64,000 bases of DNA from a virus. Each line of letters opens with the position of its first letter. Position 1 is the stretch's first letter. Below, one piece after another: positions 2,028 through 57,900 of the stretch. The position numbers and the translations under genes were made by a program. The stretch is from IMG/VR virus record IMGVR_UViG_3300022694_000001. One strand, 5' to 3'. Under the pieces are notes generated by a model. It was not told where the DNA came from. It worked only from the letters and a program-made list of their open reading frames with translations, and did not search any database.

Positions 2028-2043
2028 TTTAGGGAACCTTTTT

Positions 2044-2073
2044 AACCACGAATGGACACTAATTTACACGAAT
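2044..2073 (+). repeat. CACGAAT-type ~10-bp-period repeat, left arm of a 30-bp inverted repeat
   Basis: aaccacgaatggacactaatttacacgaat; 27/30 identical to the reverse complement of 2277..2306. Confidence 0.8.
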
Positions 2074-2298
2074 AGCTGATTTCCCGGATGGCACGGATTT
2101 TGGTTTAGGAACACCGAGTAGGCTGTTTTGTTGGATAGGGATCGCTTCTGGATGCTCACGCCGATCAACAATATTTCCGTTCGACAGACACCCGCCAAAA
2201 CCAGCTTTGACTACCTCGCGGATCTTACACAAAGCATCCACCTTGGGTTGATCTTCGGGTCTGATCGCCTTCAGAGATTCGTGTTTATTCGTGTCCAT
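2059..2298 (-). CDS. Small hypothetical protein (79 aa) between inverted repeats
   Basis: ATG overlaps the end of the glycosyltransferase; the N-terminus MDTNKHE is encoded by the repeat. Confidence 0.5.
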   Translation of the reverse strand: MDTNKHESLKAIRPEDQPKVDALCKIREVVKAGFGGCLSNGNIVDRREHPEAIPIQQNSLLGVPKPKSVPSGKSAIRVN

Positions 2299-2306
2299 TC
2301 GTGGTT
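2277..2306 (-). repeat. CACGAAT-type repeat, right arm of the inverted repeat
   Basis: Reverse complement reads aaccacgaatggacacgaataaacacgaat. Confidence 0.8.
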
Positions 2307-3391: not shown

Positions 3392-3446
3392 CCTGCTTTG
3401 CCAAGGCTTCGCAGGACGAAGGAGATCGTCCAATGTTGAATTAAGA

Positions 3447-6228: not shown

Positions 6229-6290
6229 CACTGCTTCGCTGAAGCTACGTAGGGGTACCCGCGCTCCTGTCGTTCCTGTTTTTCTTTGTT

Positions 6291-6307
6291 GACAGCGTTT
6301 CGCTGTC
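6291..6307 (+). promoter_or_regulatory. Palindromic operator/promoter motif, copy 4
   Basis: ttGACAGC-gtttc-GCTGTC directly upstream of the scaffold gene. Confidence 0.8.
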
Positions 6308-6312
6308 GTGAT

Positions 6313-7775: not shown

Positions 7776-9386
7776 ATGAAAACGATCAGAACTTATGGCG
7801 GATGGCTGCTCATGGCCGTCTGCTTTGTGGCAGCGAGCTACGCGCATGGGATAGGCCGCATCGTAGCGGATGCGGTTCCGTTTCTACCGTTGCTCGGGAC
7901 GGTATTTTACGAGGCGAACAACACAGGCACGGCGTTAGCTGCCATGTCACCGGAGGATGTCCGGAAGCTGTGGCAGGCAGGCGTGGATGTGTTCGAACAA
8001 TCGAGCGATTACTTCAAAGATTTCGAAGGTGAGGGGGTGATGTCTTTGATTGATACAGTCACGGACACCAGTAAGGGCAAGGGCCAATCGATTCGGTTCA
8101 CGGTGCAAAGCGGGTTCTACGATGAGCCGCACCTTGGCGAAGAACTCTTTGAGACCAAGGACGATTACGAAGAGATCCTAATCGACGGCAACGATCTTGA
8201 AGTGGATTGGGTGCGTCACGCATACCGATACACAGAGCGCATGGAAGAAGTAATGGGTATGCGCGGTGAGATCGTGAACGGCACGAACGAAGAGCTTGGC
8301 AAATGGTTCGGGCGCCTCAAAACCGAGCAGATGTTTATGATGTTCCGTGAAAAACTGCCGGCAGTGAATACGCTCTACGGCGGGAGTCACGCGCAAAACA
8401 CGCTGGTTAGCGCCGATTCGCTTAACTGGAACTCGATCGTGCTCACCGGTTACATTCAGAAGCGCATGGGTGGCGCGCCGGCAAAAGTCGGCAGCATCAA
8501 AGGGCAACCGGTGTTCAAGAACGTGGTGGTCGCGCCGAGCGACGTACTGGCCAGCTTGGAAGTGGACCCTGAGTTTCGCCAGATTTTGCGCGAGACCAAG
8601 GATGAAGACGCGGCCAAACTGCTCTTTAGCGGTGGCTGGGCCAATGTGCGCGGGCACATCATCTCTGAGTACACGCCGATCGATCACGACGGAGAAGGCG
8701 CGGTAGGCAGCCCGCTCAATGGGAAAGCGTTCCTGGGCGTAGCGATTACTGCCGGCACGGCCGTGTTCGACATTAAAGGCGGCGGAAATGCGACTAGCGC
8801 GGCGAAGACCAAAAAGAAATACTTCAAGTATTTTCCTGGTTACGCCTATCGGTTCCTGCTCTCGGACATTCTCTCTGTGAGCAGCGCGGAGAAGTATTTG
8901 CTGATCATCAATCCGCCGGATGCCGTAACCGACCCGAACAAGGTGGGCATGTATGCCTACACGGTCGGGAACAATGGTAACAAGATCACGATTACAAAGC
9001 GGCTGGGATCCGCTGCCAGTGTCGCGCGGGTCACAACGCTTGGTAACGTGACCTGGAACACGGGCGTATGGCTGGCAGGCGCGGACGGGTTTGCCGGGCA
9101 CACCGATGACCATCCCGAAGGCGCGTTGATTCTTCCCTGTAACGCGAACGGGCAACCGTTTGCGGATGTGCTGATGCTCGGTGCGCGCTGCGCACGGCGC
9201 GGTTACGGAAAATACCGTAACAAGCGGATGAGCGACCAGCACGAGGGCGGGTTCATCCAGGAGAATTACATTGTGAGCGTGTTCGGTCAGGCGCCGCGTA
9301 AGGACCGCTTGCAGCGTGTGCCCGGCGCCTTCCGGATCCGCGTCGCGGTCAATTACCCTGGCGTGCCGCTACCGGTGATCGTCTAA
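7776..9386 (+). CDS. Major capsid protein, N4-gp56/DUF4043-like
   Basis: RKLWQAGVD...SLIDTVTDTSKGKGQSIRFTV...GEELFE...EEILIDGNDLEVDWVRHA matches the N4-gp56 N-terminal pattern as I recall it; position after scaffold. Confidence 0.85.
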   Translation: MKTIRTYGGWLLMAVCFVAASYAHGIGRIVADAVPFLPLLGTVFYEANNTGTALAAMSPEDVRKLWQAGVDVFEQSSDYFKDFEGEGVMSLIDTVTDTSKGKGQSIRFTVQSGFYDEPHLGEELFETKDDYEEILIDGNDLEVDWVRHAYRYTERMEEVMGMRGEIVNGTNEELGKWFGRLKTEQMFMMFREKLPAVNTLYGGSHAQNTLVSADSLNWNSIVLTGYIQKRMGGAPAKVGSIKGQPVFKNVVVAPSDVLASLEVDPEFRQILRETKDEDAAKLLFSGGWANVRGHIISEYTPIDHDGEGAVGSPLNGKAFLGVAITAGTAVFDIKGGGNATSAAKTKKKYFKYFPGYAYRFLLSDILSVSSAEKYLLIINPPDAVTDPNKVGMYAYTVGNNGNKITITKRLGSAASVARVTTLGNVTWNTGVWLAGADGFAGHTDDHPEGALILPCNANGQPFADVLMLGARCARRGYGKYRNKRMSDQHEGGFIQENYIVSVFGQAPRKDRLQRVPGAFRIRVAVNYPGVPLPVIV

Positions 9387-9919: not shown

Positions 9920-10702
9920 ATGACGTTGGCGGACGCATATTCGAATTTGTTGAAGGTGTTCGGGATGCCGAACCCGGCTAACGCTCCGGATTTTATGCCG
10001 TCGATCATTCTCAATGAGATCAATGCCACGCTGCAGATGATGCAGGCCGGTGGCGAAGATTTTTTTACCCGGGAAGCCTTGGAAGTGGCGCTGGTCACTG
10101 GCCAGGCTGCGTATGATCTGGACGATGACATACAAAGCATCATCAGTCCGGCGCGGTTGTCGGATGACGAATTGCCGCTGCGGAAACTAACTACGCACGG
10201 GCAGCTCGTGCAGTTTGGCCAACTTTTCATGGGCAGGTTGAATAACGACGTGCCAAACGGTCGCCCGCTTGCCTATTTTTTGGATCCGGGGCGCCTTGTG
10301 CCAGATGGCGATGGCGGGGAGAACGTTATGATTACGGTGAACCTGGCGCCGGCGCCGGATTCAACGTTGGCAGATGCGAACGTTAAGTTGCTACTGGAAG
10401 TGATGAAAGAACCGGGAGCAATCAGCGCAGAGGATCTTGAGGACGCGTTAGACGAACCGCCCGATCCGGAGTTGGTGCTCCCTTGCCCGCACAAGTACGT
10501 GGAAAGCATTTTTCTGCCGATCGCGCGTTACAATCTCACGCACAGCTTTTTGTTTTACGATAAGGAGAAGAAACCGCAGTACGAGAGCGATTACGAGCGT
10601 GCACTGCGCGTGCTGGGAGTAGCTGACCCGCGGCGGCCGAAGCCTGTTGAATCGCGCGATGAAGCCTTGTCGAATCCGAAACCACAGATGGCCGCCAAAT
10701 GA
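9920..10702 (+). CDS. Putative head-tail adaptor / tail tubular protein
   Basis: LNEINATL...VTGQAAYDLDDDI...GRPLAYF...PAPD pattern typical of podoviral neck proteins; position. Confidence 0.65.
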   Translation: MTLADAYSNLLKVFGMPNPANAPDFMPSIILNEINATLQMMQAGGEDFFTREALEVALVTGQAAYDLDDDIQSIISPARLSDDELPLRKLTTHGQLVQFGQLFMGRLNNDVPNGRPLAYFLDPGRLVPDGDGGENVMITVNLAPAPDSTLADANVKLLLEVMKEPGAISAEDLEDALDEPPDPELVLPCPHKYVESIFLPIARYNLTHSFLFYDKEKKPQYESDYERALRVLGVADPRRPKPVESRDEALSNPKPQMAAK

Positions 10703-24382: not shown

Positions 24383-25096
24383 ATGAGCGCAATATACTCC
24401 AAAGCGCCGGAAGAAGTGTCCGAGCGCGCCAAGCCGTTGCTTGAAAAACATCACTTCGAACTGTTCAACCACGAACTGAAAATCGATTTCATTTTCGCTA
24501 ACGCGTCGGTGGACGATGCCGGGGCGCCGAGCGGGCCTGCCGTGTCGCACAACGGCTACCCGGCAGCAGCAGTGGCGCGGATCCTGTCAATTAAAGACCG
24601 GGTGATGGGCCGGGGCGATTGCGAGATTGTCATCGATGCGGATCGCTGGCCGGTTTACTCCGACGAGGAAAAAGACGCGCTACTCGATCACGAGCTAGAA
24701 CACTTTCAGATTGCCGTGGACAAATACGGCGCGCCGAAGCTGGACGACATTCACCGGCCGAAACTCAAACTGAAGAAACACGATCACCAGTTTGGATGGT
24801 TTGATAATATCGCGCGGCGCTATGGCCTGGCATCGGGCGAAGTGCGCCAGTTCCAGATGCTCTGTTACGATGAGAGCGGCCAGTATTATCTGCCTCACAT
24901 AGGCGTTGGCGATCACGACAGAGTTAAGCAGTCAATTCGCGCGCTGATGCCGCCGCGTCCGGAGCCAGAGCAGAAGATCGGGCAAATCGCAAAAAGATTC
25001 GTGAAGAACATTCGGAAGAGTATCGCCAAGGGCGAGATCGGTTCTGTCACGATCAGCACGCCTGGCATGGAGCCTGTCGAGATCAAAGGCGAGTAA
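24383..25096 (+). CDS. Putative phage metallopeptidase
   Basis: ALLDHELEH (HExxH) plus HDHQFGWF. Confidence 0.75.
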   Translation: MSAIYSKAPEEVSERAKPLLEKHHFELFNHELKIDFIFANASVDDAGAPSGPAVSHNGYPAAAVARILSIKDRVMGRGDCEIVIDADRWPVYSDEEKDALLDHELEHFQIAVDKYGAPKLDDIHRPKLKLKKHDHQFGWFDNIARRYGLASGEVRQFQMLCYDESGQYYLPHIGVGDHDRVKQSIRALMPPRPEPEQKIGQIAKRFVKNIRKSIAKGEIGSVTISTPGMEPVEIKGE

Positions 25097-38400: not shown

Positions 38401-38622
38401 ATGGCAAGATTCATCGTTTCTCGTGATACCCGGTCCAAGGTTGCCGTTGAAGCTGACGACGCGCAGAAGGCGCAGGAGATGGTGAAAACAGGCAAGGGCG
38501 ACGTGATCGACTACGACGAGACGTTTCGCGCGTCGGCGGACAAACGGCCGTTGACAGCATTGCCGACTGAACCGCCAGGTGTGGCGCCCGATGTGGTGCC
38601 CAAGACGGCTTTGCGTAAGTAA
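38401..38622 (+). CDS. Small hypothetical protein
   Basis: ATG 21 nt after motif copy 9. Confidence 0.6.
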   Translation: MARFIVSRDTRSKVAVEADDAQKAQEMVKTGKGDVIDYDETFRASADKRPLTALPTEPPGVAPDVVPKTALRK

Positions 38623-38629
38623 GGCCAGG

Positions 38630-40444
38630 ATGCCAGCGGCAGCCACGGACGAGCGCGAGATTGTTCTTGAGGCGTTAAAGCTCAATCGCGCGGCGAGCTT
38701 CGAAGTGCTTGGGGCGATAAAGCCGAAGGTTGGTCCGATCATTGAGGCACCAGAATTACAGGCCAATTACCTGCAGCGACTGGAGAGCGAAGTTGTCGAG
38801 CATTGCCTGGTCAACGAGATTCCGTGTCGCATCATCAAATTAAAACCACGGCAGAAAGGCAGCTCTACGTTTTCGGTGTGGAATTTGTTTTGCCACTGCG
38901 GGGATTCACAGAGTAACGCGGCGATCATCGGGAGCACGCACACGCAGGGCGACAATCTGATGAAGATGTTGCGGGTGTATGCCGAGCACAACAAAACGAA
39001 GAACCCGTGTCGGGTGATTGATCGGTTCGCGGACTGGGCGAACGGGAGCATGTGCGACCAGTTGACGGCGAAGAACAAGGAAGCCGGTCGGTCCGGCACG
39101 TATCAAGTGGTGATTGTGACCGAGTATGCGCGTTGGGCTGAGGAAGGCGTAGCGAACGCGGCCGACGTGTTATCGGGGTTAATCAAGACGGTGGCCGATT
39201 CGCCATTTACGCTGATCGAGATTGAGAGCACGGCGAATGGCGCAAGTGGAGATTTCTACCAGCGTTGGACTGACGCGATTACGTTCGAAGAATTGAAGGC
39301 TGGGAAGCAAGGGTATGTGCGCGTGTTCGCGGCATGGTGGCAGTTCAAAGATTCGCGGCGGGATCCGGCGAAGGAAGCCGACCAGGAGCAGTGCATACCT
39401 CCGGATAAAGTCGAGGAAGTCCGACAGAAATTTAACTTGGACGACTGGCAGATTGCGTGGATGCAATGGGCGTGTCGCGAGGAGTGCAAAAAGGATTTCG
39501 ACGTTTTCTGTGAGGAATATCCGTTTGACGCGGAGAGCGCGTTTCGCGTGAGTGGCCGGCGCCGGTTCAACATCCGCAATTTAGAGGCGATGAAAGAGCG
39601 GGCACGCAGTTTCAGTCCGGCGTTTGGGATATTGGACAGCTTTAAGGACGGGAACCAGGAGAAAGTGGTGTGGCGTCCGTGTTCGGTGGAAGAGTGCCGG
39701 GTACTACGATGGGAGCAACCGAAAGTCGGTGCGAAATATCTGCTTTCGGCTGACACGATGACTGGTGAGACGCAGGTTAGCGGGAAAGATCCTGACAACC
39801 ACGGGGTAGGCGTGATTCGGGCCGGGATGATTCAGCAAGGCGTGGGATGGGTGCCGCCGCGGTTGGTGGCGCGGTTAGTGGACGATTACAGCGAATGGGA
39901 GCGCAACAAACGTTACGCGTTACGATGGGACATCGACGTGTTGGAAGAACAAGTCTGGCGACTGGCCGCCTATTACGGCAACTGCATGATCGTGCCGGAG
40001 ATCAACATGGACCGCGGGTTAGTGGAACTGTTGAAGTTGAGGACTGGGGCGCGGCTGTACGAAGAGGAACGTTTTAACCGCCGTGAGCAGACCAAAACGA
40101 AAATGCTGGGTTGGCGGACGGACCAGCACACGCGCGAAATGATGATTGAGAACCTGGCGCGGGCGATACGCGAGCAGGGCAGGCCCGGGGAAGGCGTGGA
40201 CATTTTCTGCGAGATTACGTTGAGCGAGCTACGCGATTTCGTGGTGAAAATGAACGGGCGCAGTGAAGCGATGGCTGGCCGGCACGACGACACAGTGCTT
40301 CAAATGGCGATTGGGTTGATGTGCATTAACGCGGCGACGACGTATGCGCAGCAGCGAATCGAGATCGCGTTGCCGCGGGAATTACAGTTACTGGAAAAGA
40401 TGGAGCGCAGCCAGGAGAACGAGGCGTTAGCGATGAAATGGTGA
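38630..40444 (+). CDS. terL: Terminase large subunit
   Basis: IIKLKPRQKGSST (Walker A), IEIESTANG, LLSADTMTG, GRHDDTVLQMAIG. Confidence 0.9.
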   Translation: MPAAATDEREIVLEALKLNRAASFEVLGAIKPKVGPIIEAPELQANYLQRLESEVVEHCLVNEIPCRIIKLKPRQKGSSTFSVWNLFCHCGDSQSNAAIIGSTHTQGDNLMKMLRVYAEHNKTKNPCRVIDRFADWANGSMCDQLTAKNKEAGRSGTYQVVIVTEYARWAEEGVANAADVLSGLIKTVADSPFTLIEIESTANGASGDFYQRWTDAITFEELKAGKQGYVRVFAAWWQFKDSRRDPAKEADQEQCIPPDKVEEVRQKFNLDDWQIAWMQWACREECKKDFDVFCEEYPFDAESAFRVSGRRRFNIRNLEAMKERARSFSPAFGILDSFKDGNQEKVVWRPCSVEECRVLRWEQPKVGAKYLLSADTMTGETQVSGKDPDNHGVGVIRAGMIQQGVGWVPPRLVARLVDDYSEWERNKRYALRWDIDVLEEQVWRLAAYYGNCMIVPEINMDRGLVELLKLRTGARLYEEERFNRREQTKTKMLGWRTDQHTREMMIENLARAIREQGRPGEGVDIFCEITLSELRDFVVKMNGRSEAMAGRHDDTVLQMAIGLMCINAATTYAQQRIEIALPRELQLLEKMERSQENEALAMKW

Positions 40445-42904: not shown

Positions 42905-45900
42905 ATGGCTGATGAGAATGACGAGCAGCAGCCAGAGCCGCCGGTAATCAACCGGGAGATCGGTCAGAATCCCCTAGTTCCGAGCGCGCCGGCAGACGCC
43001 GAAGAGGCCGCGCCGTTATCGTCGTTCATTCCTCCGGATCAACCTGCGCCACGGGTAATCGTGTTACCGCGGCCACGGCGACAAGGACCGTTGTATCCGC
43101 GCGACAGAATCAATCCGAGTTGGCATCCGAGGGATCGGGCGCCGAAGTACGGGCGTGCTGTAGATCAATTTGATGAAGCGGCCATGTACCGCGAGCAGCA
43201 TCCAGTCGAACGGGATCCAGAGACGGGTGCACTGCGACCGATGCGCGCTGATCAATATCGTCCCGGAAAAAACGTCATTAGTTACGACCAGCAGGGGCGC
43301 CCGAAACCCTTCGATATAGAGGACATGTACCGTGAGGAACAGGGGCAACGGACGAAATTAAACCGTGAAGCCGCGCAGACGTTAAAAGAAGCGCATGTTC
43401 AACTCGAGCGAGATCCGGACACGGGGGTAGTTAGCCCGGTACGCGACGATTCCGGCAACATTCAATATCGTCCGGGGAAAGGCGCGGTCAGTTACGACCA
43501 GCAAGGGCGCGCCATTCAAACACAGTACGACACCAGCGGTCCGAAGCAGGTGGAATTGGATAAGGACTCGGAGATTGGGCCAATCGAAGGGCGACCGCCT
43601 AACGAGCTTTACAAGCAGAACAAGTATTCCCCTTTTGAATACGTCGGCACGATTGATGAAGGCCTGAAACATTCGGACAAGAACATTCAGCAGGCTGCAC
43701 AAACGGCAAAATTGAAGCTGGAACACCGATTGCACGCCGCGGTGGCTAACGACCTGGGCCAGACAGTCAGCGAGCAATCGTTAGTGGTCCAGGGAAAGAT
43801 CAGCGATTTCAAGAGTAAGGGGAAATTACTCGGGCAGTTGAGTCAGCAACTCGATAATTTCGACGCTGAACATCCGGGCATTACCGAAACGGAAGGCGGT
43901 TTTCTGGGGATGGGCGCGCGGCCTAGTCAGACGGCGACAACGTTGCAGGCGCAAAAGGCTGATTTGCAAAAGCAGATCGAAGATTTACAAGGGCAAGGCT
44001 ATTCGACGGACCCGAAGGCGGTAACTGAGTTCACAAAAACCGATCGTGAATCGTTGGCGGCAACGCGCGCGGTGCACGGGGAGTGGTCGTCTGGCACACC
44101 GAAGGAACCCGGCGATTTTGACAGGCTGATTGACAGGCGCAAAGCGATCTTGGCCGAGCAAGGCGTTGACGTGGGCGAAGATCCAATTTTGCAATCGCTT
44201 GAGAAACGGCGCGCGGAGCTTGGGGTTGGAGCGCCGACACCGAAAGATCACGCGGCGGAGGATGAACTGCGCAAAGACGCTACGTTTGGGCCGTTACTGC
44301 AGGAGCGCGACCAGTTGCACTCCGCGCATGAGGCTGCCAGCAACGAGTTGCAAGGTATTCAGGACGAATACGACAAAGTGATCGGTCCGGTCCGCGAACG
44401 ATTGCGCGTGGGCCAGGCGCAGATCGCGCCGATACAAGCCGAAGTCGAGGCTTACAGCCACAAACTCGATCAGGTGCTAGGGATGCCGACGCCAGCGGCG
44501 GGCGACGAACAGGCGCTTGCGGCGCGTGAAGCTGAGTGGAGCACTCGAATCTCGCAGTTGACCGATCCGCGACAAAAAGCGCGGGTGCAAACAGTGTTGA
44601 ACGCTCTGGAGCCTGCAAAACAGCAACTCAGGATGGCGCAAGCGCAGTTGCAACCGGTGCAGGATACGCATGACGCGCTGGTAGAAGAGAACCAGCGGAT
44701 GATCGCGGACCGCCATGCGCAATTTGAGAACGAGTTGGGGCCGCAGAGAGAGGATCTGCAGGCGCGAATGGGTGCTGCGCATCAGCAACGGACCGTGACT
44801 GAGGCTGTGCGTAAAAGCGATGTGCTCGCAAACGTGCTTGGGCCGTTAATGGTGAACCCTAACGACCCAGGGTTTACGCCGTCGTTAGTCCAATCGATTC
44901 AAGAAAATTTAGATCGCCGGAAGCAGGAAGCGATCAAGTCTTGGGATTTTGAGCCAAACGATTTCGAGCGGGAATTATTCGGTGCGCCGTTTCGCATGGT
45001 CGGGGAAGGCTTAAAAGGCTTCGCGCATCTCTCTGAAGGTTTGTTAAAGCTGTTCCCGCAGGAAAAGAACGTTTCTGATCACGAGCAACACGCGGTCTTA
45101 ACCCGATGGGTGGCTGACCAACTTCTGAAAGTGCCAGGGGTGCTTTCGACGCCGCAAAGCGAGAAATCGTTAGCCGGCAAGGCTGGTGGATTTATCGGGG
45201 GCGTTGCTGGCGCAGTCGGCGCGGGGTTAATCGACCCGGCGATATTGGTGCCACAGTTTTTCGGTCAAGGTGTCAACGGTCAGATGGAAGCGGCGAAGCA
45301 AGCGGGAGCTGACGACGCGACGGCGCTAAAGGCTGGTGTTCTCGGTGGCACAATCAACGCGCTTCTGGCAATTCCGTTCGAAGGATTCGGTAAGGCGCTC
45401 ACGGAGACGTTTGGCAGCGCGAAACAGAGCGCGATTCAGAAAGCGTTAAAGGAATCATACGAGCGCGGAGGCGCGGAAGCTGTTGCCAATGATTTAACGA
45501 TTCTGCGTAACTCGATGATAAAAACCGCCGGGCGGTCCGCGTTTCAAAAGACTGCCGTGGATGCGTTGCAGCCCATCATTGAAGAAATCACCAAAACACC
45601 GTTGCAACGGGCGGGACAGGTTGGAATCGAAGTGCTAAAAGATAGCGCGCTTTTTGCCGGCGTTCAGGCAGCTCAAAACGCGGTTACAAAGACGTACAAT
45701 CCGGACACCGGGCTTTTCGAGAATGTTCCGACAGCGGCCTTTGAAGGCGGAGTGCTTGGGGCGTTCTTTGGTGGGTTACGGCAGGTTGGCCGGGCGCAAA
45801 AGGCTGGGGCGGCACGTGAAGAAATTGCGACTGGCTTGGCGAAACAGGCGCGTGCTGGCGAAGTGCAGCCGATGGGTGTGGAGAGAGCTTTGCCGGAGAC

Positions 45901-48900
45901 GGGGGTTACGGAGGGGCCGACCGAAACGCATGAACAGGCTTCTCGTAATGCTGGGGTTAGTCCGGTTGAAGGTGTTGATGAAGCGGGCCAAGGGCCAGGA
46001 CCGATCGAACAGGCGCACGGCGAGATAAACAATCTTGTGGTGCCGGATGTGTCGCCGGCTGTGAATACGGCGACGCAACATGCGTTGCGCGGGCTGATCA
46101 AAATTGCCAACGGCGAATCGATGGAAGCGTTGACCACGGCAGAAAAGGCGGCGGTGAACGCAAAGACGACCGATGGATTGCCTCGAGTTGTGATGGTGAA
46201 AAGGGCTGACGGCAAACAACAGCCGGTTATCACGGACGCGACGCTCGAACGGATCCGGCAGATTGCGCCGGTTACTGCACAAGTGATGCCGCAGAGCGAG
46301 GGTGAGCAACGGCAGCGGATACTTAATCCTGTTGAAGAAATAACGCCGGAATCTGGTTCAGTTGAAAAGGGAGAGATTCAACCAAACAAGAAAACTCCTG
46401 AGATTTCTCAACCGAGCTTCGAAGTGGCCATTGAGCGGCCGAGTGGCGAAGTGGAGACGCGGACGGTGCAGGCTGCGAGTGCAGAGGCCGCAAAGGGACA
46501 GGTCGCTGGTTCAATTTCTCCCGGACAGGGGATGGTGCGCGATGTTTCCGAAGTTCCACAGGCGATGTCCGGTTTTGTCCCCTTAGATGAGGGGCAAAAA
46601 ATGGACACGGCTACAGCCTTGTCGGATGAGATGGTGGGCCAGGTGCGGGAGCAGGCTGGCCGCGAGCTCCAACCGGAAGAGGAGCAGGCGGTGCGCGGTA
46701 TCGCGGAACGCGTTACGCCTGCGATTGAGAAGTTTCGAGGGGCGTTCAGTTCGATTCAGGCCACGCTTGAGCCGCGGGGGTCGATGGGTGCGTTCACGAC
46801 TATTCCCGAAGGTAAATTAGTGCTTTCGCTGCCGGACATTGTGCGGCACGCGCAGGAATGGGGCGAGCCGGAAGGTCCGGACCTGGTTGTTGAACAGGAA
46901 GCGATTCATGCGGTCGCGGACCAACTGCATCAGCAGGGCAAGATCGATCCGGAAGGTATTGCGCGCGATATGCCCGCTGAACTGCGGGAGCATGTGGCCG
47001 GCGTTTACAACCCGGACGTTCCGATGGAGGAGCGGAATGATCTCGAGGACGGCCACGAATTTTTGCGCTTACTGGTGCAACACCAGTTGAGAGTGGACGA
47101 AGGCAAAGTGGTCGATGCCGACGGGAAAGTAATCACCGAAAACTTGTCGCCTGGCTTTATCGCACGGATCCGGCAGGCGTTGGTGCGCTTGTTCGAAGTG
47201 TTTCGGGACATGGCGAAACGGCTCGGGGAGATGGGCGCGAAACCGGAGTACGTCGAGCAGGTGCAAAAAGCGCGGGATTTAATCGTTACCCGATTAAGAG
47301 AAGTTGACGCTGGCAGCCGCGGTGCGTATGAGACAACCAATGGCGGTAAGACGGCTCAGGTCAAAGGTAAAGGTGGTAAAGCTCCCGCAGAACGATCTGT
47401 GGAAGGGGAATTACGTGTCGAGCCTAAGCCGACAGCAGGCCAGGGACAAGTTGCGGGTGCTGGTGTTGGTGGAGCAGTTGGACAACCACATGGAGTCATG
47501 TCGGCTGCGACGAAAACTCTTACTGGCCAGGCTGGATCAGGTGCCGGAGCGGAACTGACCTCCAAGGAGATCGCTCAGGCGGCAATCGCGATTGGTGCTC
47601 CTCGGGATAAGATTACAAAACCGTGGTGGGATAAGGTCGGCAATAAGCACGTTCTCTCTCAGGGTGGGCGCTCGGTGAACGTGGCGTATGTTGCCCAGGA
47701 AGCCAGCAAGGGGCGCACGTCGCATGACGCGCTGGGTAATGCGTCGTCCGGTTACGATCTGAGTTTGCAGCCGCGTGACCGGAGCTTGGCGCAGTACCGG
47801 AAGCAATCGCAAAATATCGCGCAGAATTTGGACTTTGCGCAGGCGGCTTTCTTTCCCGAAACGACTACGCCGGCGACGACGGGCGACATCGGCGCGCCAG
47901 TGATGACGCCTACGGGAGACACGCTGATTGGGAACGGACGCGAGATAGGGATTAAAGCTGCGTACGCTGCGAACAGCCCGCAGGCGCGCGCTTACAAGCG
48001 AGATTTTGTGCATAACGCTGCCAGGTTCGGGATTGACCCTGCCGCTGTGATGAAGATGCGGCAGCCGGTGTTGAAACGGGTGATTCTGGATGATTTGCCG
48101 AAGGACGAGCTGATCAGGCTCAGCCAGGAATCCAATGAAGGCGTGGCGATGGGTGTGAACGCGACTGAGATCGCGAATCGCGACGCGACGCGGCTGACTC
48201 CTGAGATACTTTCCGAGTTTGATCCGAATTACGCGCTGGACGCGGCGAAGAATCGCGGGTTTTTGCGGAGTTACCTGCAGAACGTGGTCAGCGGCGCGGG
48301 CGCGAACGAGGCAAATATCAACTGGCCGGACCTTGCGCGGCGGGTGCGCGCTGCGGTGTTCACGTATGCGTATGGCGCGGATGAAGCGGGTCGGGCCGCG
48401 CTCGAGCGGTTACAAGGCGAAGACTCGAGCCGCAAAATCACGGACGGGCTTTTAACGGTGGCGCCGATCGTGGCTCGGATGAAGGCCGATATTGCCAGTG
48501 GCGATTTGTTTCCGCTGGATATTTCTCCGGAAATCGCGCGGGCGGTCCAGGATATTTCGGAGGCGCTTCGGGACAGGCCGAAAGGACAGAGCGCGAGCGT
48601 GGCGTTGGATGGGCTTGTTGCGCAGGGCGAGTTAATTCCGGCAGGCGACGCGCCTGCCCTACAACAATCGGTTCGTGATTTTGTGATTGCGAACCGCGGG
48701 AACCGGGCGGCGATCGAGGAGGCGTTGAGCAATTACGTCGAATCGGTGTATGAGATTGGGAATCCGAAGCAGCCGAACTTGTTTGGTGAACAGGCGGGAG
48801 AAGAATCGGATCGGACGCAACTTTGGAATTTAGCGACCAAGCCAGAAGCGATTGCGCCGAAGACAGAGCAGAGAGAACTTGCTGCGCAAGCTCTCAGAAG

Positions 48901-51900
48901 TCGGATGTCAGAGGACAGAGGGCAGCTTACGCCTCTGGATCACGTGATTCATCGGAAACTACGTGCCGGAAAGAGCGTGGAAACGGTCGCGAAAGAACAC
49001 GGCATGAAAGTGGAGCATGTCGAGCGGACTTATGACCGGGTGAATCGATCCCAGGAAATTCGAACTCTCCTATCACAACAAACATTTCGATCTGAAACCG
49101 ATGCTTTTGCTGCGGCAGAGAAGGCTAAACCGAGTTTCGATCAGACATTGGAAGACGTAGCTAAGGCTACCGGGGCGCGCGCAATGACTACGCCAATCAA
49201 GAGCAGGGAGCGCGCTGCGGCGAAGGTGGCGGCAGATTACAGGGGCGATTGGAGCAAGATCAAAGATTTGGTTCGCGGAACGATTGTGGTGCGCGATCTC
49301 GACCAGGCGAAGGCAGTCGTCGGAGCGTTGGCGCAACGGTTCGGAGTGGAACCCAAGCGTGACTTCAATCAGCCGTTACAGAGCGGCTACAGGGACGCTT
49401 TGTTTAATCCGATTATCAATGGCTACGTCGCCGAGATTCAGGTTCATATCGAACCGATCATTCACGCGAAAAGCACGTCGCACACATTTTACAAAAGACA
49501 TCAAGAAATTCAGCGCGCTGCGCAGGTAGAAAATCGTGCGTTAAACAGCCAGGAACTTCGGACTATCGAGCGTCTTAATATGGCGCAGCAGAGAATTTAC
49601 GCGGCGGCTTTCGGCAACATCTCGGGAGAGATCAGTTCGACGGCATCTGAAGGCTTGCAAGGAAAGGCACCGACCGATTTGATTTCTTCTGGCGTTATTG
49701 GTCGCGGAGAATCGCCGTCGAAAGCCCAAGCGGTCCCGTCCTTATCTACCACGATTCCGAAGCCGGCGGGGGCTTCCATGAAGGATTTAGCGTCGGGGAA
49801 GGCGGCGATTGCTTCTTCGTCTGTCATTCCACCTTCTCTTACACCGACTGGTGGTGTTCGTCATCAAGAAGTTTTGCTGGCGCAGAAACTCAAAGACACT
49901 GGGACGCTAGACCTATTCGGGGATTACGTGGGCGCGTTGCCGGCGGCGGCGAAAGCGAGTAAACCGGCGCTCAAACGCGAGGTTGAAAAGGATGTGCCGA
50001 GCCTTGCGGAGAGCGGGGCGGCGCTGAGCAATCTTTTTGAGTTGGCGCAGCCGGGGAAGACCTATGAGGTTTCTAACCCAGTCCAATTCCCGAAAGTTCT
50101 TTCGGCTACGAGATACAGTGACTCGACTGTTGCGAAGGTGGCACATAACTATGTTACCCACCAAACGGAATACGGATACCGTGTCGAGCTAGAGGATGGG
50201 CGTCAGTGGATCGGTTCGGCCAAGAATCGAGACGCAGCCATCACGAAAGCGCAATACGAGTTTCGAAAAACGTTGACGGAAGCGCCTGCGGCGGGTATTC
50301 CACAGGCAAATGAAGACGCAGTTCGAAAAACCGCCAGAGCTAACCGAAAAGCGAAGGTTGGCACTGAGACAGCAACCGGAGTGGATGACTTGTTTTCGCT
50401 CCTGGCTGAACAGCACGGATCCGAGCGAGATACGGGATTGGCTGGGGGGGTCGTACAAGACGCTATTGGAGCACCTGGACGAACTGACGTGGCGGGTGCT
50501 GGCGATCTACCTGGACACGAAACAGACGCCGGACGACCTGGCGGAAGCGTTACGGCAGGAGATACCGATGGAGGACGAGGACTCGCAGAACCCACTGACA
50601 CCGGAGGAAACGCAGCGCCTAGTGAAACTGGCGGAAAGCGCACACTTCCCAAGTTAGTTAGTCGGCCCGCGGACCCGAACGCTCGGAATTACGTCATTCC
50701 GCGCGACACAAAAGAGATTGCTCCACGCGGAGCGATGGCCAAACTGCGCGCCAATCAGGACGCGATCAAGTTACTGAAACAGATCGAGACCGAACAGCGT
50801 CTCGCGACTCCTGAAGAAAAATCGCAACTGGTCAAGTATTCGGGTTGGGGCGCGCTCTCCCAGGCGTTCGATGACGCAAAGGCGGATCGAATTGCCGCTG
50901 GTGAGATCTCGGAACTGAATACCGAGCTGCAACGTTATCGTGGCTACCAGGAGAGGAATCGCGAGTCCAGTTATTACAGCGGCGAGATTGGGCGACTAGA
51001 AAAAGACATCCGCAGCCTTGAAAGCTGGCAAAGCAAGTGGGGCGACATTCACTCCGAACTAAAGTCGATGCTCACCCCGGACGAATACAAGCGCGCGATG
51101 CGAAGCACGATCAACGCGCATTATACCTCTCCAGAGATGATCAAGTCCATGTGGGACATTGCCGCGCATCTCGGATTCAAGGGCGGTAACGTGCTCGAGC
51201 CCGGCGCCGGTATCGGTCATTTCTTTGGGCTTATGCCGGAAGAGCTTTTATCCCGGTCCAGTCTTCATGCAGTAGAGCTCGACGACATTAGCGGCCGGTT
51301 GACCAAGATGCTTTATCCGGAGGCCGACGTGCAAATCACTGGCTTCCAAAACGCGGACATCGCCGATGGGTCAGTGGACCTGTCGATTTCAAATGTGCCT
51401 TTCGCGAATGTGCCGGTCACGGACAAGGCGATGGAACTCTCCGGCGGGCCTACGGATAACCTGCACGATTATTTCCTGGCCAACATGATCAAGAAGTTGC
51501 GCCCCGGCGGATTAAACATCGCTATTACAAGCGCGTTCACGATGGACAAGGGCGCGAGCGAAAACCGAAAATGGATGGCAGACCGCGCGGACCTGGTAGC
51601 GGCGTTCCGGTTGCCGAACAACGCTTTCAAGGCCAATGCAGGCACGGATGTGGTGACTGATATTTTGGTGTTTCGCAAAAAAGATGGACAGATTTTTCCG
51701 CACGCGAAGGATTGGACGATGCTGGATAACGCTACGACACAAAAAGGCGATCCGATTCGGGTAAACCAATATTTCGCGCAGCATCCACAGGATATTCTTG
51801 GGTTCCTGGCAGACGACGGCGAGATGTTCGCGCACGGCGCCGGCGAAAAAGAGATGACGGTGCACGCGGACCCAAACCGGCCGCCTGCGGTGGCGCTGGA

Positions 51901-54900
51901 GCAAGCCATTGACAATTTACCGAAGGACATCGCAGGCGACGGGAACGCGGCCGAAGTGCGCAGCAACGATCCGACCATCTCGAAGATGGGGAATATCGTG
52001 GAGAAAGACGGCAAGTATTTCTTCCACGGGCAAGCGGAGCCGGACGAGGCGTTGAATGATCCTAAGAACGCGAAGCGAGTTCGAAAGTTTATTGAGACGC
52101 GCGACGTTTTGAATGAGCAGTACCGGCTGGAACTGGATCCGGAAGCGACCGACGAAGATGTTGAAGCTAATCGTCGGATGTTGAACGCGCGTTACGATTC
52201 GTTCACCGCCGATTTCAGTAATTTTCATACTCCGAAAAACAAAGGGCTATTCATTGACGATCCGGATTGGTTCCGGTTGGCCGGCGCGGAGACACCGATT
52301 CAGGTTTCAGGCGGCGTTAAAGAGATGTTGTCGATTTTGGACGGCAAAAAGAGCCGACAATTTACAAAGGCCGACGTGTTCAAGAAACGCGTGCTTACGC
52401 CGATCATTGAACCCACGAAAGCTGACAGTCTAGAAGACGCTTTCGGAATGAGTCTCGGTTGGCGCGGTCGCGTGGACCTTGGCTACATTTCGGATTTAAC
52501 CGGCCAAAGCCGGGAACAAGTGGAACAAGGATTGGTCGCATCCGGCATCGTGGTGCGCGACCCAGAAAACGGGCAACTTCAATCTCGCGAGCAATACCTG
52601 GCTGGCAATGTGCGTAAGAAACTCGACATCGCTAAAGCCGCAGGCCCGGATTACGAGCGCAACGCTCAAATGCTAGAGGCGGTTCAACCGGAGGACGTGC
52701 CAATCGACGAAATCCGGTTCAAGATCGGCGCGACATGGGTGCCAGTGGACGCTTACCAGCAATTCCTGAGCACGATCGGGATTGAGTTACCCATTGAATA
52801 CCACACAGCTCTCGCCGGCGGGCGCGACTTTTACACCGTAGGCTTGCGTGATTACCGTGCGACCGGTGTAGCGCACAAAGATTTCAGGACAGACCAGGTG
52901 AGTGTGCCTGAGTTGATGGACTCGATGCTGAACATGAAGCGCATCGAGGTTCTCCACACCGACAAGGATCGAAAGGGTGATACCGATGAAGGCGCAACTA
53001 TGGCGGCTAGGGATGCGGGTAAACGGTTGAGTGACGCTTTTGTGGCTTACGCGAAAGGCAATGCGGAGCTTGGTCCGCGGCTCGCGCAAATCTATAACCG
53101 CGAGGCGAACGGGTTCGCGCAACGGACGTATGACGGACAATTCCTTACTCTCCCGTGGAAAAATAAGGATTTCGATCTTTTCCCCGACAAAAAGAACGTC
53201 ATTTGGCGCGCGATACAAGATCGATATGCACTAATTGCGTGGGGCGTTGGCGGCGGCAAAACAGTGATTGCGGCCGGGATCGCGCTTGAATTGCGTCGCC
53301 TCAAACTAGCGTTAAAGCCGATGGTGGTGGTGCACAACTCCACGCTGGAGCAGTACGCCGACGAGATTGCGGTGATTGCGCCGAGCGCCCGGGTATTGAT
53401 CGGACGCAAAGACGAACTCTCTGGCGCGAAACGGAAAGAGTTCCTGATGCGAATTGCTGCCGGCGACTGGGACGCGGTAGTTATCGCGCATAGCACCTTC
53501 GGATTGATCGAAGACGACCCAGTGTTTCAGACAAAACACATGGAATCGCTCGTGGACGAAGCGATGCAGAGTTTAACGGATCGCGGATACAACTCAGTCT
53601 CGGATGCCAAGAAATCGCGCGAACCCAGTGTGAAGCAACTAGTCAAGATGATCGAGCAGCTTGAGACGAAGATTCAGGCACTTTCCGAGCGAAAAACCGA
53701 CACGGGCCTCTTGAATTTCCAACAACTCGGCGTGGACGCGCTGATCGTGGATGAAGTGCACAAGTTTAAGAAAATGCCGTTCTCGACCAAGCTGGACGTA
53801 AAAGGCATCGACAGCGGCATGAGCCAGCGCGGTTACGCCATGTTGCTCCGAGCCAGGTCAATTCAGGAGCGTAACGGCGGCAAAAACGTGTTCTCGATGA
53901 CTGGCACGCCAGTCACGAATACGCTGGGGGAAATCTGGAACCAGGTAAGACTGGTGGCGCCGCATCTCCTGAAAGAATACGGCGTTGAAACGTTCGATCA
54001 ATTCGTCAGCAAGTTTGCCGAGGTCGAGACGATCAGCGAAGCCGGCCCGAGCGGTGAACGCAAGATGGTGGAGCGCCTATCGAAGATCGTAAACCTGCCT
54101 GAGTGGTCCACATTTTTCCGGCAAGCTGCCGACGTGAAACTGGGCGACGACATGGTGGTAAAGAATCGTCCGGGCATCAAAGGAGGCGGCGGACAACTGA
54201 TCGCGCTGGAGCGCACACCTGGCACGGCCGCGTGGGTTAATTATATCCGCAACGTGCTCGAAGGGTTCAAAGAGCTAAAATACGACGATTTTAAGGATAA
54301 TAAGAGCCTGTTTGCTGTGCCGGTGCAGGCTTACATCGCGAGCCGAGCCGCAGCGATCGACATTCGGTTGATCGAACCGCGCGCCAAAGATGAGTCGGGC
54401 AGTAAGGCTAACAGGGCGGTTCGCGGCATAATCAAACTCTATCGAGAGACCACGCCATACAACGGGACACAGGTGATCTTCTCCGACTCGTTCAACCAAG
54501 TCAAAACCAGTTTGTTTGATGCCGTGGTGCCACGGTCGAATCTCAACCTAGAGCTCGACCCCAGTAAACCGCCAGGAACGACATTTAATCTTTACGAAGA
54601 CATCAAGGCGAAACTGATAGCTCTCGGCGTGCCGGCGGAAGAAATCGCGATTGTTGCCGACAAAGAATTTGATAATGCCAAGCGAAAAAAATCACTCTTC
54701 GAGGATGTGAATAAGGGCAAGGTTCGCATCGTGATGGGCAGCACGGAGAAACTCGGCACCGGCGTCAACATGCAGGAGCGGATGCTTGCGGCGTGGAACC
54801 TGGACGTTCCGTGGACAGCCGCAGGGTTAGAGCAACGCGACGGGCGCGTGTATCGGCAAGGCAATGTGCACGCGGAGATGGGCGTACCCGTGGAATTGAC

Positions 54901-57900
54901 GCGGTTGGGAATGAAAGACACGCTGGATGAATCGCTCTGGAAAATTATTGAGCGCAAACTGCGGATCCAGAAACAGGCGTTAAGCGGTAAGATCGTGGGG
55001 CGCGAACTCGAAGAGATGAGCGATGTCCTGAGTCTCGCGGAGCAAGCCTCGATTTTAAGCGGCCCATACGGAGCCGAGAGTTTCGAGCTGGATAGCCGGA
55101 TTCGGGAATTAGAAGGGAGCCGGGCCGGGCACGACCGTCAAGTTGCAAACCGAGATTCGGAGATCAGGTCGTCGAAAGAATGGCTGCGCCAGCAGGAAGC
55201 CGAAGAGGCGCGGTCTGAGCCGGCGATGCAGTTAATGGCAAAACTCGGTGAGCGCGTCTCGAAAGACGGTGCTCAGATCACGGTAGATGGCGATTCGTTT
55301 GAGACTAAGACGGCGATGGTGGAGCGTGTGAACGCGTTATTGGACGCGGAGAAAAACAAACCGACCAACGAAAAAAGCAAAGCCATTTTCTCAGTGGCGG
55401 TCAACGGCGTTCCGGTGCGGTTGGATGTTACTCCTACAGAATATGACGAATGGGATGTTGCGGGTGTAGAAAGCAAGAGGGTAACGAAACCGTCCGCGCA
55501 GTTCGATCTGATGGCGACGGATTCCAATAGCCCGAAATTCGGGCGCGTAACCAGCGCGGCGACGCTGTTGGCGCGCCTCGAGGAATTAAGCGGGACGGTG
55601 GACGGAATCAGGGAAGGCCGAAAGAATAACACGGCGCGATTACGGCAACTGGCCGAGATGCAGCAATTGGGTAAATGGCCGTTTAAAGAGGAATACCAGA
55701 GAGCACTTGCGCGACAGAAAGAGCTTTTGAAGCTGATGCGCGGGGAAGAACTCAAAAAAACAGGAGAAGGAGAAGAAACGCCGAACGCTCAACGCCCAAC
55801 GCCCAACGCTCAACCGGCAGAATTGCGAGCACAGGCGACGGCGGATGCTGCCAAGACGCCGGCGGAACGGTTTAAGGATGCGTGGCCGTTGGCTGAATCG
55901 ATTGCACGCTCGTATTCGAATATCCCCGGCGTGACGCTGAAGGACGTGGAGCAACATGCCCGGATTGCTCTGGTGCGCGCGGCGCGTGAGTTTGATCCTG
56001 CTCGCGGGGCCGCAATGGACACGTTTGCGCGCAAAGTGGTCGGGAATGAGTTGCGCAGTCTTTACGGCAGGCAGATGCGAACGGCGGGGCGGGAATCGAC
56101 GGTGCTGGATGTTCCCGTCTCCGCCGAAGGCTCTGCCGCGGTTTCACAAAAAGAAAACATCGTCGGGCCGAGCGATGTTCGGGCGGACGTGGCGCGGACT
56201 GAGGCGACACAAATGCTTTCGACCGCGATTGACGAGTTGCCGGACAAAATGCGAGACGTGATGAATGGAATCTTGTCCGGGAAAGAGACGCTGGGCGAGA
56301 TCGGGGAACGGCTTGGCGGATTACCGAAACAAGCCGTAGGCCGGCTGGCGAGTGCGGCTATGCGCCGGTTGAAAGGGAAACTTGGTGAGAAAGGCGTTTC
56401 TGGTGTGACGGATCTGTTGAGTCAGGAAACGACCACGGATAACACGGATACGGAGAAAAAGACGTTATCGGATTTCTTGGCGAAGCATGATGCGTCGAAG
56501 GGCACCGTTCCCGCTAAAAAGATAGCTGAGCCGACTAGGAGGAATGTTAAGTTAGCTGAGAAGCTCGGAAATCAATCAACGAGAGACTCGTCTGTTGTTC
56601 CTAATTTTCGGCCTGTGGAGCAGGAAATCGCGATTGGAAGGGCTTATGGCTACAGCGATAACGACATCGCAGCATACTTGCAGCGCAATTACGTGGATCG
56701 AATACCCGAACGTGTTGCGCAAACGTCTGTAGGCGTTCGACCACCGCAGGAGCTAATTGACAAGTATCCAGAGTTAAAACACGCCATTAAAGTTTCCGAG
56801 AAATATGGGCATTTAGTGAAACTCAGCGAGCAACTGGAACTACTGAGTCAGGTCGTCGAGGATGAAGTGAAGCTGTCTGAATCGGCTGATCCGGTGGCGT
56901 CGTTCATGGAGCTTATGCGGGATGATCCGGTTGAGAAGTTGCGCGGTATAAAAGGCATTGGGCGGCCTGATCTGGCGCTGGGCGCGGAGCCTGCCATGCG
57001 GCCGGTGCACGAGTTTCATACTGCCACGGCTACGCCGCAAAAACTGGATGATTGGGACAAACAAGGCGAAGCGATTTTGCGCAGCCGCGGCGACAAATTG
57101 CCAGCGGATGTTACTAAACGTTGGCTGGATGGCTCAGTGCTCGAGCCCGCGGAAGTGCGCGCGACACAGCAATATCTCATCGAAAAACAGGGGCAACCGA
57201 AGACGCCAGAGGAACAACGCGGGTATGACGCGTTGGCGTACGCTTATACCAAGATCGGGGAAGCGACCGCACGGGCGTTGTCTGCGCGCCGTGATCCGTT
57301 CAAAACGCCGGAGGAGAGGAACCGTGAATTTATCGGGAAAGCTCTTGTGCATTTGTCGGCTACTGAAGATCGCGAACTGGACGCGATTGCCGATCACAAG
57401 GAGAAAGTGGCGCGCTTGGAGCAGATCGTTCAGGGGCGACGCACTCAGATCAACGCGGCGCTGGAGCATGTCGCCGGAAAGGGCGTGACGATTGACGATA
57501 TTTTGTCCGGCGGCACGGAATTGCGGTTAAAAGGCGCCAAAATGATCGAGAATCAGATGGCGGGTTACGGCGAATCGGAAAAGAAAGTGATCAAGCTGGC
57601 GCAGACCGGGGCGCGCAGCGCTGCGGAGATTGCGAAAGCGACAGGGCTCAGCGTCAAACAGGTCAACGACATCAACGACCAGTTCGTATCCGATCTGGAA
57701 ACGAAATTGATGGCTAAGACTCGGGCCGGGGCGACGCTTGAGAATTTGGATGCGCAGCAGATTGCACTTTTGGCGCAGGAGACGGAACGGCGGCCAGGGG
57801 CCTCCGCTACAGTATCCGAAGACGTTGCTCGCGCTGAGGCGCGAAAAATGATCAAGGCGATGGGGTTTGTGGCGAGCAAGGATTTGGGCACGATGAAAGT

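Follow-up and report, generated by a model that had tools for sequence, protein, structure and literature searches.

A recurrent L-x-[S/A]-Q peptide at the module borders of a giant phage ejection protein, a candidate site of cleavage

We analysed a stretch of 64,000 nucleotides (the window) from the IMG/VR virus record IMGVR_UViG_3300022694_000001, which encodes a giant protein in which a short peptide, L-x-[S/A]-Q, recurs. As judged from its relatives, this peptide is located at module borders and is selected at the peptide level. We propose that the L-x-[S/A]-Q peptides would be the sites where a polyvalent protein delivered by the virion is cut into its modules, a reading in which our belief and our doubt are about equal. 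Polyvalent proteins of phages are frequent in metagenomes, and how they deploy their modules is still to be explained; it has been suggested that they are processed, but with no site named, and we found no published account of such peptides at the junctions of giant phage proteins. With a junction peptide defined, the processing question becomes directly testable. It also gives a rule for parsing module borders in thousands of giant uncharacterised phage proteins. If the protein is cut, the exact mature forms of its effectors are predicted, for example a sigma factor of 197 residues, and slots between paired sites would account for the gain and loss of effectors.

A single open reading frame of the + strand (P0001, 42905..60097; 5730 amino acids, a chain of about 630 kDa) contains all the sites considered below. 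It lies between the terminase gene (38579..40444) and the scaffold and capsid genes. From its Pfam and PHROG domains and its 33 homologues of 3,300-6,800 amino acids, we identify it as a polyvalent ejection protein of a short-tailed phage. Among the signature domains of the polyvalent class it carries PF18763, while PF18796, PF18799 and PF18760 occur in the precomputed domain lists of its homologues. Domain scans place disparate activities (ParB, Tas1-like RelA/SpoT homologue, methylase, helicase, sigma, HTH) in this one polypeptide, in the following order, all on the + strand. A ddrB-like ParB domain (residues 1588-1726, 47666..48082; PF18763, E = 3.4e-15) precedes an orphan HTH cassette with weak HTH_23 and DUF3071 matches (residues 1996-2054, 48890..49066). 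Then comes a Tas1-like RelA/SpoT-homologue module (residues 2059-2323, 49079..49873), which matches Tas1 (PDB 6ox6, phmmer, E = 1.2e-12) and, weakly, the Pfam RelA_SpoT model; the first-pass annotation had called it RelA/SpoT, and Tas1-like is the more precise assignment. The next block (residues 2328-4306, 49886..55822) combines a DarB-like N6-adenine methylase with an SNF2/ResIII helicase (ResIII, SNF2, Helicase_C) and matches the 'DarB-like antirestriction' family phrog_10089 twice, with E = 1.6e-194 and 5e-207. It is followed by a sigma-70 family module with regions 2 and 4 (residues 4311-4503, 55835..56413; PF04542, PF04545, phrog_351), an orphan cassette of 138 amino acids (residues 4508-4645, 56426..56839) and a conserved helical module ending in an HTH (residues 4650-4954, 56852..57766).

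The C-terminal domain (residues 4959-5730, 57779..60097) is the most conserved part across the family of giant proteins, and it resembles internal virion protein D of the T7 type. It matches phrog_6651, 'internal virion protein', with E = 1.5e-9, and tblastn relates it to 'internal virion protein D' of pelagiphages and roseophages at 22-30% identity (best E = 1e-8); 11,948 library proteins match it at E<=0.001. Its AF2 model is all-helical and found no match among solved structures, and no lytic transglycosylase domain was found in the giant protein. By analogy with phi24B gp47, which is detected in virions, the giant protein is probably packed in the virion and injected.

The seven sites of the pattern L-[LRA]-[SA]-Q listed in the first-pass annotation are all present. 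LAAQ at residue 1992 (48878..48889) closes the conserved N-terminal/ParB block, and LLSQ at 2055 (49067..49078) borders the orphan HTH cassette, its support being confined to this role as a cassette edge. LLAQ at 2324 (49874..49885) comes third; LRAQ at 4307 (55823..55834) stands directly ahead of the sigma module, and LLSQ at 4504 (56414..56425) at a constant distance after sigma region 4. LLSQ at 4646 (56840..56851) and LLAQ at 4955 (57767..57778) are the last two, the latter ahead of the C-terminal ejection domain. That the motif falls between modules, and the list of modules given with it, proved essentially right. The looser matches, of which LQAQ and LVAQ were mentioned there, are real as well: there are four (LQAQ 347, LVAQ 1904, LNSQ 2213, LDAQ 4948), among which those at 1904 and 2213 fall within domains, and LDAQ (57746) lies inside the helical/HTH module, 7 residues before the seventh site. 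Codons are unlike among the seven sites, which argues for selection on the peptide and not on the DNA. The context of the motif is the end of an ordered element, then the motif, then a flexible stretch rich in Pro, Thr, Glu and Asp; after Gln, Pro is enriched 3.7-fold (it follows immediately in 21% of sites), and Thr and Glu/Asp are enriched also, as in flexible linkers.

Counted against shuffled sequence, the strict pattern occurs 7 times for 1.1 expected (p = 0.0005) and L.[SA]Q 11 times for 4.2 (p = 0.0035), but the pattern was picked post hoc and this single-protein excess would fail a correction for the search space. No other + strand reading frame of at least 150 amino acids in the window has more than one L.[SA]Q, and the scaffold, capsid protein and tailspike have 0. 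The relatives decide the matter, as the excess in one protein alone would not, and they confirm the observation. Of the 226 internal ends of BLAST blocks (33 homologues), 24% lie no more than 10 residues from one of the seven sites, against 2.6% for random site sets, and 0 of 10,000 random draws reached 24%. The five largest clusters of block ends are located at the sites 4504 (23 ends), 4307 (17), 4646 (16), 1992 (9, at 1977-2003) and 2324 (9, at 2318-2335).

We then took the 15 closest homologues, with 121 breakpoints, and scanned without bias every pattern of the form X.XX lying no more than 12 residues from a breakpoint, 1,416 patterns in all. L.AQ ranks first (30 occurrences against 3.25, p = 3e-19) and L.SQ second (22 against 2.76, p = 3e-13); these p-values overstate independence, since the motif copies of relatives have common descent. 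This result was reproduced in two separately clustered groups. Positional conservation in homologues, a check suggested with the first description of the motif, was found in the close clade: 14/14 at 4955, 14/14 at 4646, 12/13 at 4504, 9/9 at 4307, 11/12 at 1992 and 6/7 at 2324. Conservation reaches 90% or more in the columns of L, S/A and Q, whereas position 2 and the flanks differ in sequence and length. In the N-terminal 1,990 residues, block boundaries are present without the motif. In other clades, related forms of the motif are found at the borders of the sigma module, and either L.[SA]R[ARGN] (67 against 29) or L[YF][SA] (35 against 13) is enriched. Such clade-specific forms are expected if recognition co-evolves with a protease.

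Comparison of these sequences also indicates that cassettes are gained and lost between paired sites. Pairs of sites which are 5-13 residues apart in some members enclose cassettes of about 140-200 amino acids in others; such empty and filled slots are seen in P0005 against P0006, and in P0002 and P0003 against the protein described here. The 138-amino-acid cassette is absent from P0002 and P0003, where the fifth and sixth sites merge into one site. The orphan HTH cassette is found in our protein alone and has no homologue among 176 relatives; at its place, P0003 has two motif sites 13 residues apart. P0002, P0003 and P0006 also have the motif on both sides of the Tas1-like module, and non-homologous inserts are bordered in the same way, for instance the His_Phos domain of P0002.

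The mechanism we propose is the following. The conserved N-terminal part, of about 2,000 residues, carries a zincin-like domain and the ddrB-ParB domain. The C-terminal part, of about 770 residues and similar to T7 gp16, would let the chain enter the capsid and leave it by way of the tail. Between the two ends stands an exchangeable cargo, every cassette of which has the motif at its borders: HTH, Tas1-like ppApp synthetase, DarB-like methylase-helicase, sigma factor, small orphan and HTH module. A sequence-specific protease would cut at the motif or beside it and free the modules, most likely after assembly or after ejection, because no prohead protease was found in these phages. The cut may fall before Leu, a frequent preference of zincins, or between Ser/Ala and Gln, which suits a rule with Leu at P3 and a small residue at P1; a cut after Gln is disfavoured by the Pro found there. 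Iyer et al. 2017 proposed that polyvalent proteins are processed by a peptidase and cite P1 DdrB as processed prior to packaging (PMC5512222).

The protein's own zincin-like domain (residues 1250-1480, or more narrowly about 1300-1440; 46652..47344, + strand), which the first-pass annotation had overlooked, would be the most likely protease. It is supported by alignment, AF2 and Foldseek; every close relative has it, as do 71 of 135 giant relatives. Its AF2 model has a pLDDT of 92. Foldseek against AFDB gives weak matches (TM 0.3) to Peptidase MA-like (E = 1.3e-3), M48, IrrE, ATP23 and HEXXH proteins; the fold matches in PDB, thermolysin and anthrax lethal factor, are weak also, and no Pfam model matched at E <= 1. 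In the alignment, E1332, H1335, E1385 and E1412 do not vary within the family. The sequence at 1331-1335 is QEAIH, against HExxH in 15 relatives and EExxH in 47; with Gln, and in most relatives Glu, at the position of the first zinc ligand, the activity of the domain is uncertain. It is a better candidate than the proteases first named. Somewhat doubtfully, we may extend the proposal to the giant ejection proteins of short-tailed phages in general: these would be true polyproteins, with cassettes bounded by L-x-[S/A]-x whose fourth residue is clade-specific (Q here, R/G elsewhere), and an embedded atypical (H/E/Q)ExxH zincin would cut them after ejection, releasing sigma factor, ppApp synthetase and antirestriction methylase-helicase before phage genes are expressed.

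Several facts count against cutting: the missing canonical first ligand of the zincin-like domain and its weak fold matches, the Pro after Gln, the motif-free borders of the N-terminal part and the L.[SA]Q matches inside domains. Some of them would suit a peptide which is never cut, a hinge or a docking peptide for a chaperone, the portal/core or the ejection channel, which would aid packing, unfolding and module-wise threading of a protein remaining one tethered chain. The conservation and boundary data are equally compatible with this explanation, and the Pro after Gln and the passage from order to flexibility suit it. According to Iyer et al. (PMC5512222), N4 virion RNA polymerase, its metallopeptidase domain included, is packaged uncut, and plasmid polyvalent proteins also travel uncut. 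However, tethering to a membrane-embedded gp16-like domain would restrict the sigma factor, ppApp synthetase and methylase-helicase, closely paired sites fit two cuts more easily than two docking sites, and a docking peptide has no known partner, so that we consider an uncut tag unlikely. We find it very improbable that the motif is a functionless remnant of a common cassette frame, a by-product of shuffling, or due to chance. The common descent of the relatives and, by our estimate, the size of the pattern search space speak for it; yet three columns stay fixed as the flanks diverge and vary in length, the variable codons leave no DNA repeat to drive recombination, non-homologous and orphan cassettes are bordered as well, and the motif tops an unbiased scan.

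The sites could also be cut by another protease: a host enzyme after ejection, the HExxH protein at 24383, or some head protease that escaped recognition, all three named as candidates with the first description of the motif. The QEAIH of the embedded domain favours such an enzyme, and L-x-[S/A] with a variable residue after it may be akin to what Ser-Lys-type and assemblin-type proteases prefer at -3/-1. The HExxH protein is encoded in the window (24383..25096, + strand, a match to PF18894, 'phage metallopeptidase', in the replication module), but it is weakened as a candidate because its gene and the giant one are not inherited together: the former is missing from five related phage records which have the giant gene, and five phages with the closest homologues of the HExxH protein are without the giant protein's C-terminal domain. 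As for a prohead protease, none was found in the reading frames of the window, the 67,122-bp contig being about 3 kb longer, or in the five related records (two at least 98% complete), where PF04586 (Peptidase_S78) and PF00574 (ClpP-type) were searched for and are absent, the search there being confined to these two families. A host protease is a possible cutter, but motif forms which vary between clades favour an enzyme encoded by the phage over a broadly conserved one of the host. Altogether, we give the participation of another protease little credence.

The giant protein and its junction peptide can be compared with known systems. In T4 (gp21) and phiKZ (gp175), L/I-x-E and S/A/G-x-E motifs direct the cutting of many ejected internal head proteins; these phages have a gene for an assemblin-type prohead protease, and many of their head proteins carry the motif. 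Here, in contrast, an enzyme of this kind was not found, and the motif is almost restricted to one protein. The Dar antirestriction proteins of P1 are encoded by separate genes and packed in the head, P1 being a myovirus with a head protease. The methylase-helicase block matches the DarB-like family and the ddrB-type ParB domain is common to P1 DdrB, but here they are fused in a single chain, and the phage is a short-tailed one in which no head protease could be recognised. MARTX toxins and RNA-virus polyproteins offer a working analogy, with effectors in one chain freed at short linker sites by a protease of the same chain, although Pfam scans of the whole protein detect no MARTX-type cysteine protease or 3C-like protease, and host, delivery and domains are unrelated; the polyprotein analogy is made by Iyer et al. 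themselves (PMC5512222). The polyvalent proteins they describe resemble ours in uniting ddrB-ParB, methylase-helicase, a nucleotide-signalling enzyme, DNA-binding domains and a virion domain in one chain, in their predicted co-injection with DNA and in a zincin-like peptidase domain proposed as the processor. The passages of their paper that we consulted contain no cleavage motif, whereas our protein has a specific junction peptide, cassette slots and clade-specific forms, and its peptidase-like domain is atypical, (H/E/Q)ExxH. Finally, the likeness to ejection proteins of the T7 gp16 / 'internal virion protein D' kind lies in the C-terminal 700 residues or so, which match pelagiphage and roseophage proteins annotated as 'internal virion protein D' (22-30% identity), but ahead of that domain the giant protein carries about 5,000 residues of cargo.

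The first-pass annotation had picked out by eye seven tetrapeptides of the form L-[LRA]-[SA]-Q between protein modules. All seven were recovered where it had placed them, in a single open reading frame (42905..60097, + strand, 5,730 residues) whose product we call the giant protein. They lie at residues 1992, 2055, 2324, 4307, 4504, 4646 and 4955, and a looser form, L-x-[SA]-Q, adds residues 347, 1904, 2213 and 4948. In the giant protein alone, the strict pattern is observed 7 times for 1.1 expected after shuffling (p = 0.0005), and L.[SA]Q 11 times for 4.2 expected (p = 0.0035). The excess over shuffled sequence is thus present, but it proves nothing alone: the pattern was picked post hoc from the sequence, and 10^5-10^6 degenerate four-residue patterns of a comparable kind exist. 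This means that relatives were needed to decide. No other + strand ORF of the window of at least 150 aa has more than one L.[SA]Q, and the scaffold, the capsid protein and the tailspike of the window have none. Some matches in the giant protein are not at junctions, as the annotation had also noticed for LQAQ and LVAQ: LVAQ at 48614 (residue 1904), after the ParB domain, and LNSQ at 49541 (residue 2213), within the Tas1-like domain, both lie inside domains and are kept in relatives.

Our first homologue search gave 33 proteins of 3,300-6,800 residues. When the giant protein was compared to its homologues with BLAST, 24% of the 226 internal block ends fell at most 10 residues from a motif site, versus 2.6% for random sets of sites, the observed level being reached in 0 of 10,000 draws; the top five clusters of block ends are at sites 4504, 4307, 4646, 1992 and 2324. 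We also ranked every pattern of type X.XX by its enrichment at most 12 residues from 121 homology breakpoints in the 15 closest proteins. L.AQ (30 vs 3.25, p = 3e-19) headed the list of 1,416 patterns, followed by L.SQ (22 vs 2.76, p = 3e-13), and this ranking was reproduced in two separately clustered groups, new 50%-identity representatives included. Positional conservation in homologues, a check proposed with the annotation, is borne out as well: among members of the close clade, the orthologous junctions retain the motif in 14/14 cases at 4955, 14/14 at 4646, 12/13 at 4504, 9/9 at 4307, 11/12 at 1992 and 6/7 at 2324. The observation of a junction motif is confirmed, and is stronger than could be known from the one sequence.

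The junctions also behave as slots. Several relatives have pairs of sites 5-13 residues apart where others have an entire module between the equivalent sites: five residues separate LLSQ and LKSQ in the relative P0005, and about 196 occupy the same slot in P0006. In P0002 and P0003, the LLSQ following the sigma module runs directly into the downstream module; the giant protein has at this place an extra orphan domain of 138 residues (56426-56839, + strand), with LLSQ at both ends. Its 59-residue orphan HTH cassette (48890-49066, + strand), with the motif on each side, occupies a slot that in P0003 consists of two sites at a spacing of 13 residues. Neither cassette is matched by a homologue in any of 176 related proteins. 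The motif also borders non-homologous inserts, for example the histidine-phosphatase domain of P0002. Downstream of the Gln, Pro is over-represented (3.7x), and next Thr, Glu/Asp and Pro, a composition typical of flexible linkers; that of the residues preceding Leu is ordinary.

The Q-type code is characteristic of the clade of the giant protein. A scan of X.X patterns near breakpoints in the whole family (135 proteins) returned mostly Pro-rich linker patterns, L.A being eighth, and L.[SA]X is enriched over the whole protein at p < 1e-3 in only 7/135 proteins; hence, we consider this code as a feature of the clade. At the borders of the sigma module, distant clades have L-L-S-A/R, V-L-A-S-G or L-[FY]-S-G, and two forms are enriched: L.[SA]R[ARGN] within a 17-protein clade (67 vs 29 expected), L[YF][SA] within a small one (35 vs 13 expected). 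The clades may share an L-x-[S/A] core followed by a clade-specific residue, a rule that is suggestive only, because the unbiased scan outside the Q clade did not pick out L-x-[S/A]-x forms. These two enriched forms are those of the family groups P0017-P0026 and P0016/P0018, and several clades have a conserved DPNQxEFxF element after the motif preceding the sigma module.

The giant protein is a polyvalent protein as Iyer et al. 2017 (PMC5512222) use the term. It occupies the place of an ejection protein in an SU10-like phage with a short tail; for SU10 itself, the number of separate ejection proteins is five (PMC9509320). Its modules include a ddrB-type ParB domain (residues 1588-1726, + strand; Pfam, E 3.4e-15), a "DarB-like antirestriction" block (phrog_10089, E 1.6e-194 and 5e-207) with ResIII/SNF2/Helicase_C signatures and, from Pfam/PHROG scans, sigma-70 regions 2 and 4 (residues 4328-4490) and weak HTH matches (residues 1996-2058 and ~4890-4955). 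The module annotated as RelA/SpoT (49079-49873, + strand, residues 2059-2323) was rightly named and can be narrowed to a Tas1-like one, as its residues 2068-2191 match the (p)ppApp synthetase effector Tas1 (6ox6, E 1.2e-12); it would be a nucleotide-depleting enzyme of toxin type carried as phage cargo. The C-terminal domain matches phrog_6651, "internal virion protein", in the PHROG scan, and the C-terminal ~700 residues resemble "internal virion protein D" of pelagiphages and roseophages (tblastn, best E 1e-8). This region shows the strongest conservation in a very large family (11,948 library proteins at E <= 0.001); its alignment profile gave nothing meaningful against PDB sequences, and its model no Foldseek match in the PDB at E <= 0.001. 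We dropped the idea that this domain is a portal, given the match to internal virion protein D, the separate SU10-type portal gene (SU10_portal, locus L081, 30268-30899) on the contig of the relative P0015, and the ~3 kb of our own contig that the window does not cover. Nor do short "stand-alone" C-terminal proteins help as examples of a natural split: P0037 is a fragment at the edge of a contig, and is uninformative.

As to the enzyme, the HExxH protein proposed in the first-pass annotation (24383..25096) is a PF18894 "phage metallopeptidase" located among replication genes. This proposal is weakened: among records of related phages, five have the giant gene but not this protein (two of these are at least 98% complete), and the C-terminal domain of the giant protein is lacking in five phages (four at least 95% complete) that encode the closest homologues of the metallopeptidase. 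The unseen prohead protease fares no better, none being found among the ORFs of the window, which covers all but ~3 kb of the contig (67,122 bp in total), and the families Peptidase_S78 and ClpP being absent from five related records. The proposed list omitted a zincin-like domain inside the giant protein itself (residues ~1300-1440, + strand, from the family-wide alignment). Its pattern across the family is (H/E/Q)-E-x-x-H, then H/M-E-F, with E1332, H1335, E1385 and E1412 invariant; in the giant protein it reads QEAIH (46895-46909, + strand, residues 1331-1335). The first ligand position is Glu in 47 and His in 15 of 73 family members, and Gln only in the giant protein. Every close relative has the domain, as do 71/135 giant relatives. 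No Pfam model matched it at E <= 1, and its alignment profile found nothing meaningful among PDB sequences. Its AlphaFold model (pLDDT 92) has Peptidase MA-like as the best match among AlphaFold-DB clusters (E 1.3e-3), followed by several M48, IrrE-like, ATP23 and HEXXH-motif proteins, and thermolysin and anthrax lethal factor are among its weak PDB matches; the VIA-align result is dominated by a terminal helical hairpin. A predicted complex of the domain with the junction segment 4478-4525 scored 0.00, which speaks neither for nor against.

We give about an even chance to the reading in which the motif marks cutting sites, with the zincin-like domain as the most likely enzyme. A protease would cut at the motif, and the cargo modules would then separate from the ejection domain. 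The embedded zincin-like domain is the sole protease-like element co-inherited with the motif, a candidate of uncertain activity; the enzyme could instead come from the host or be a phage protease that was not recognised. Since no head protease was found, the modules would more likely be cut apart once the capsid is filled, or after ejection, than at prohead maturation. Pro directly follows Gln in 21% of motif sites, which disfavours cleavage after Gln; cleavage before Leu would fit a zincin, and cleavage between Ser/Ala and Gln would fit the constant L and S/A and the variable next residue. Of the polyprotein cleavage code originally proposed, the position at module borders stands, but cleavage itself is plausible and unproven, and the list of candidate proteases has to be revised.

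The main rival, an uncut hinge or docking tag, seems to us rather unlikely. That the motif is an inherited remnant or a product of chance we judge very improbable: conservation of at least 90% is limited to the L, S/A and Q columns of the junction alignments, position 2 varies (L, A, R, K, F, Y, M, G), and the flanks differ in sequence and length among relatives. The Leu, Ser/Ala and Gln codons are unlike among the seven sites; therefore, the constraint bears on the peptide, and we ruled out a DNA-level repeat or recombination site as the origin of the motif, the codons differing at 7/7 sites. Our literature search did not find a published description of the junction peptide. The junction site would be new; polyvalent phage proteins were already known, and Iyer et al. 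2017 (PMC5512222) had proposed that they are processed, in passages which give no site.

The structural module is SU10/Kuravirus-like, with an SU10-type adaptor (SU10_adaptor, 9920..10702) in the window and SU10_portal on the P0015 contig. The window also has a terminase (38579..40444), a scaffold-like gene (6286..7647), a major head protein (7776..9386) and a tailspike; no portal gene was recognised in it, and one could fall in the part of the contig beyond. A 394-aa ORF rich in Pro/Ala/Gly/Thr (41719-42903) stops one base ahead of the start codon of the giant gene; it has no family match and could be a further internal virion protein or not a gene at all. Five minus-strand genes (97-4993), including a group-1 glycosyltransferase (2285..3466), form a moron-island-like block upstream of the scaffold and capsid genes, antisense to the structural genes.
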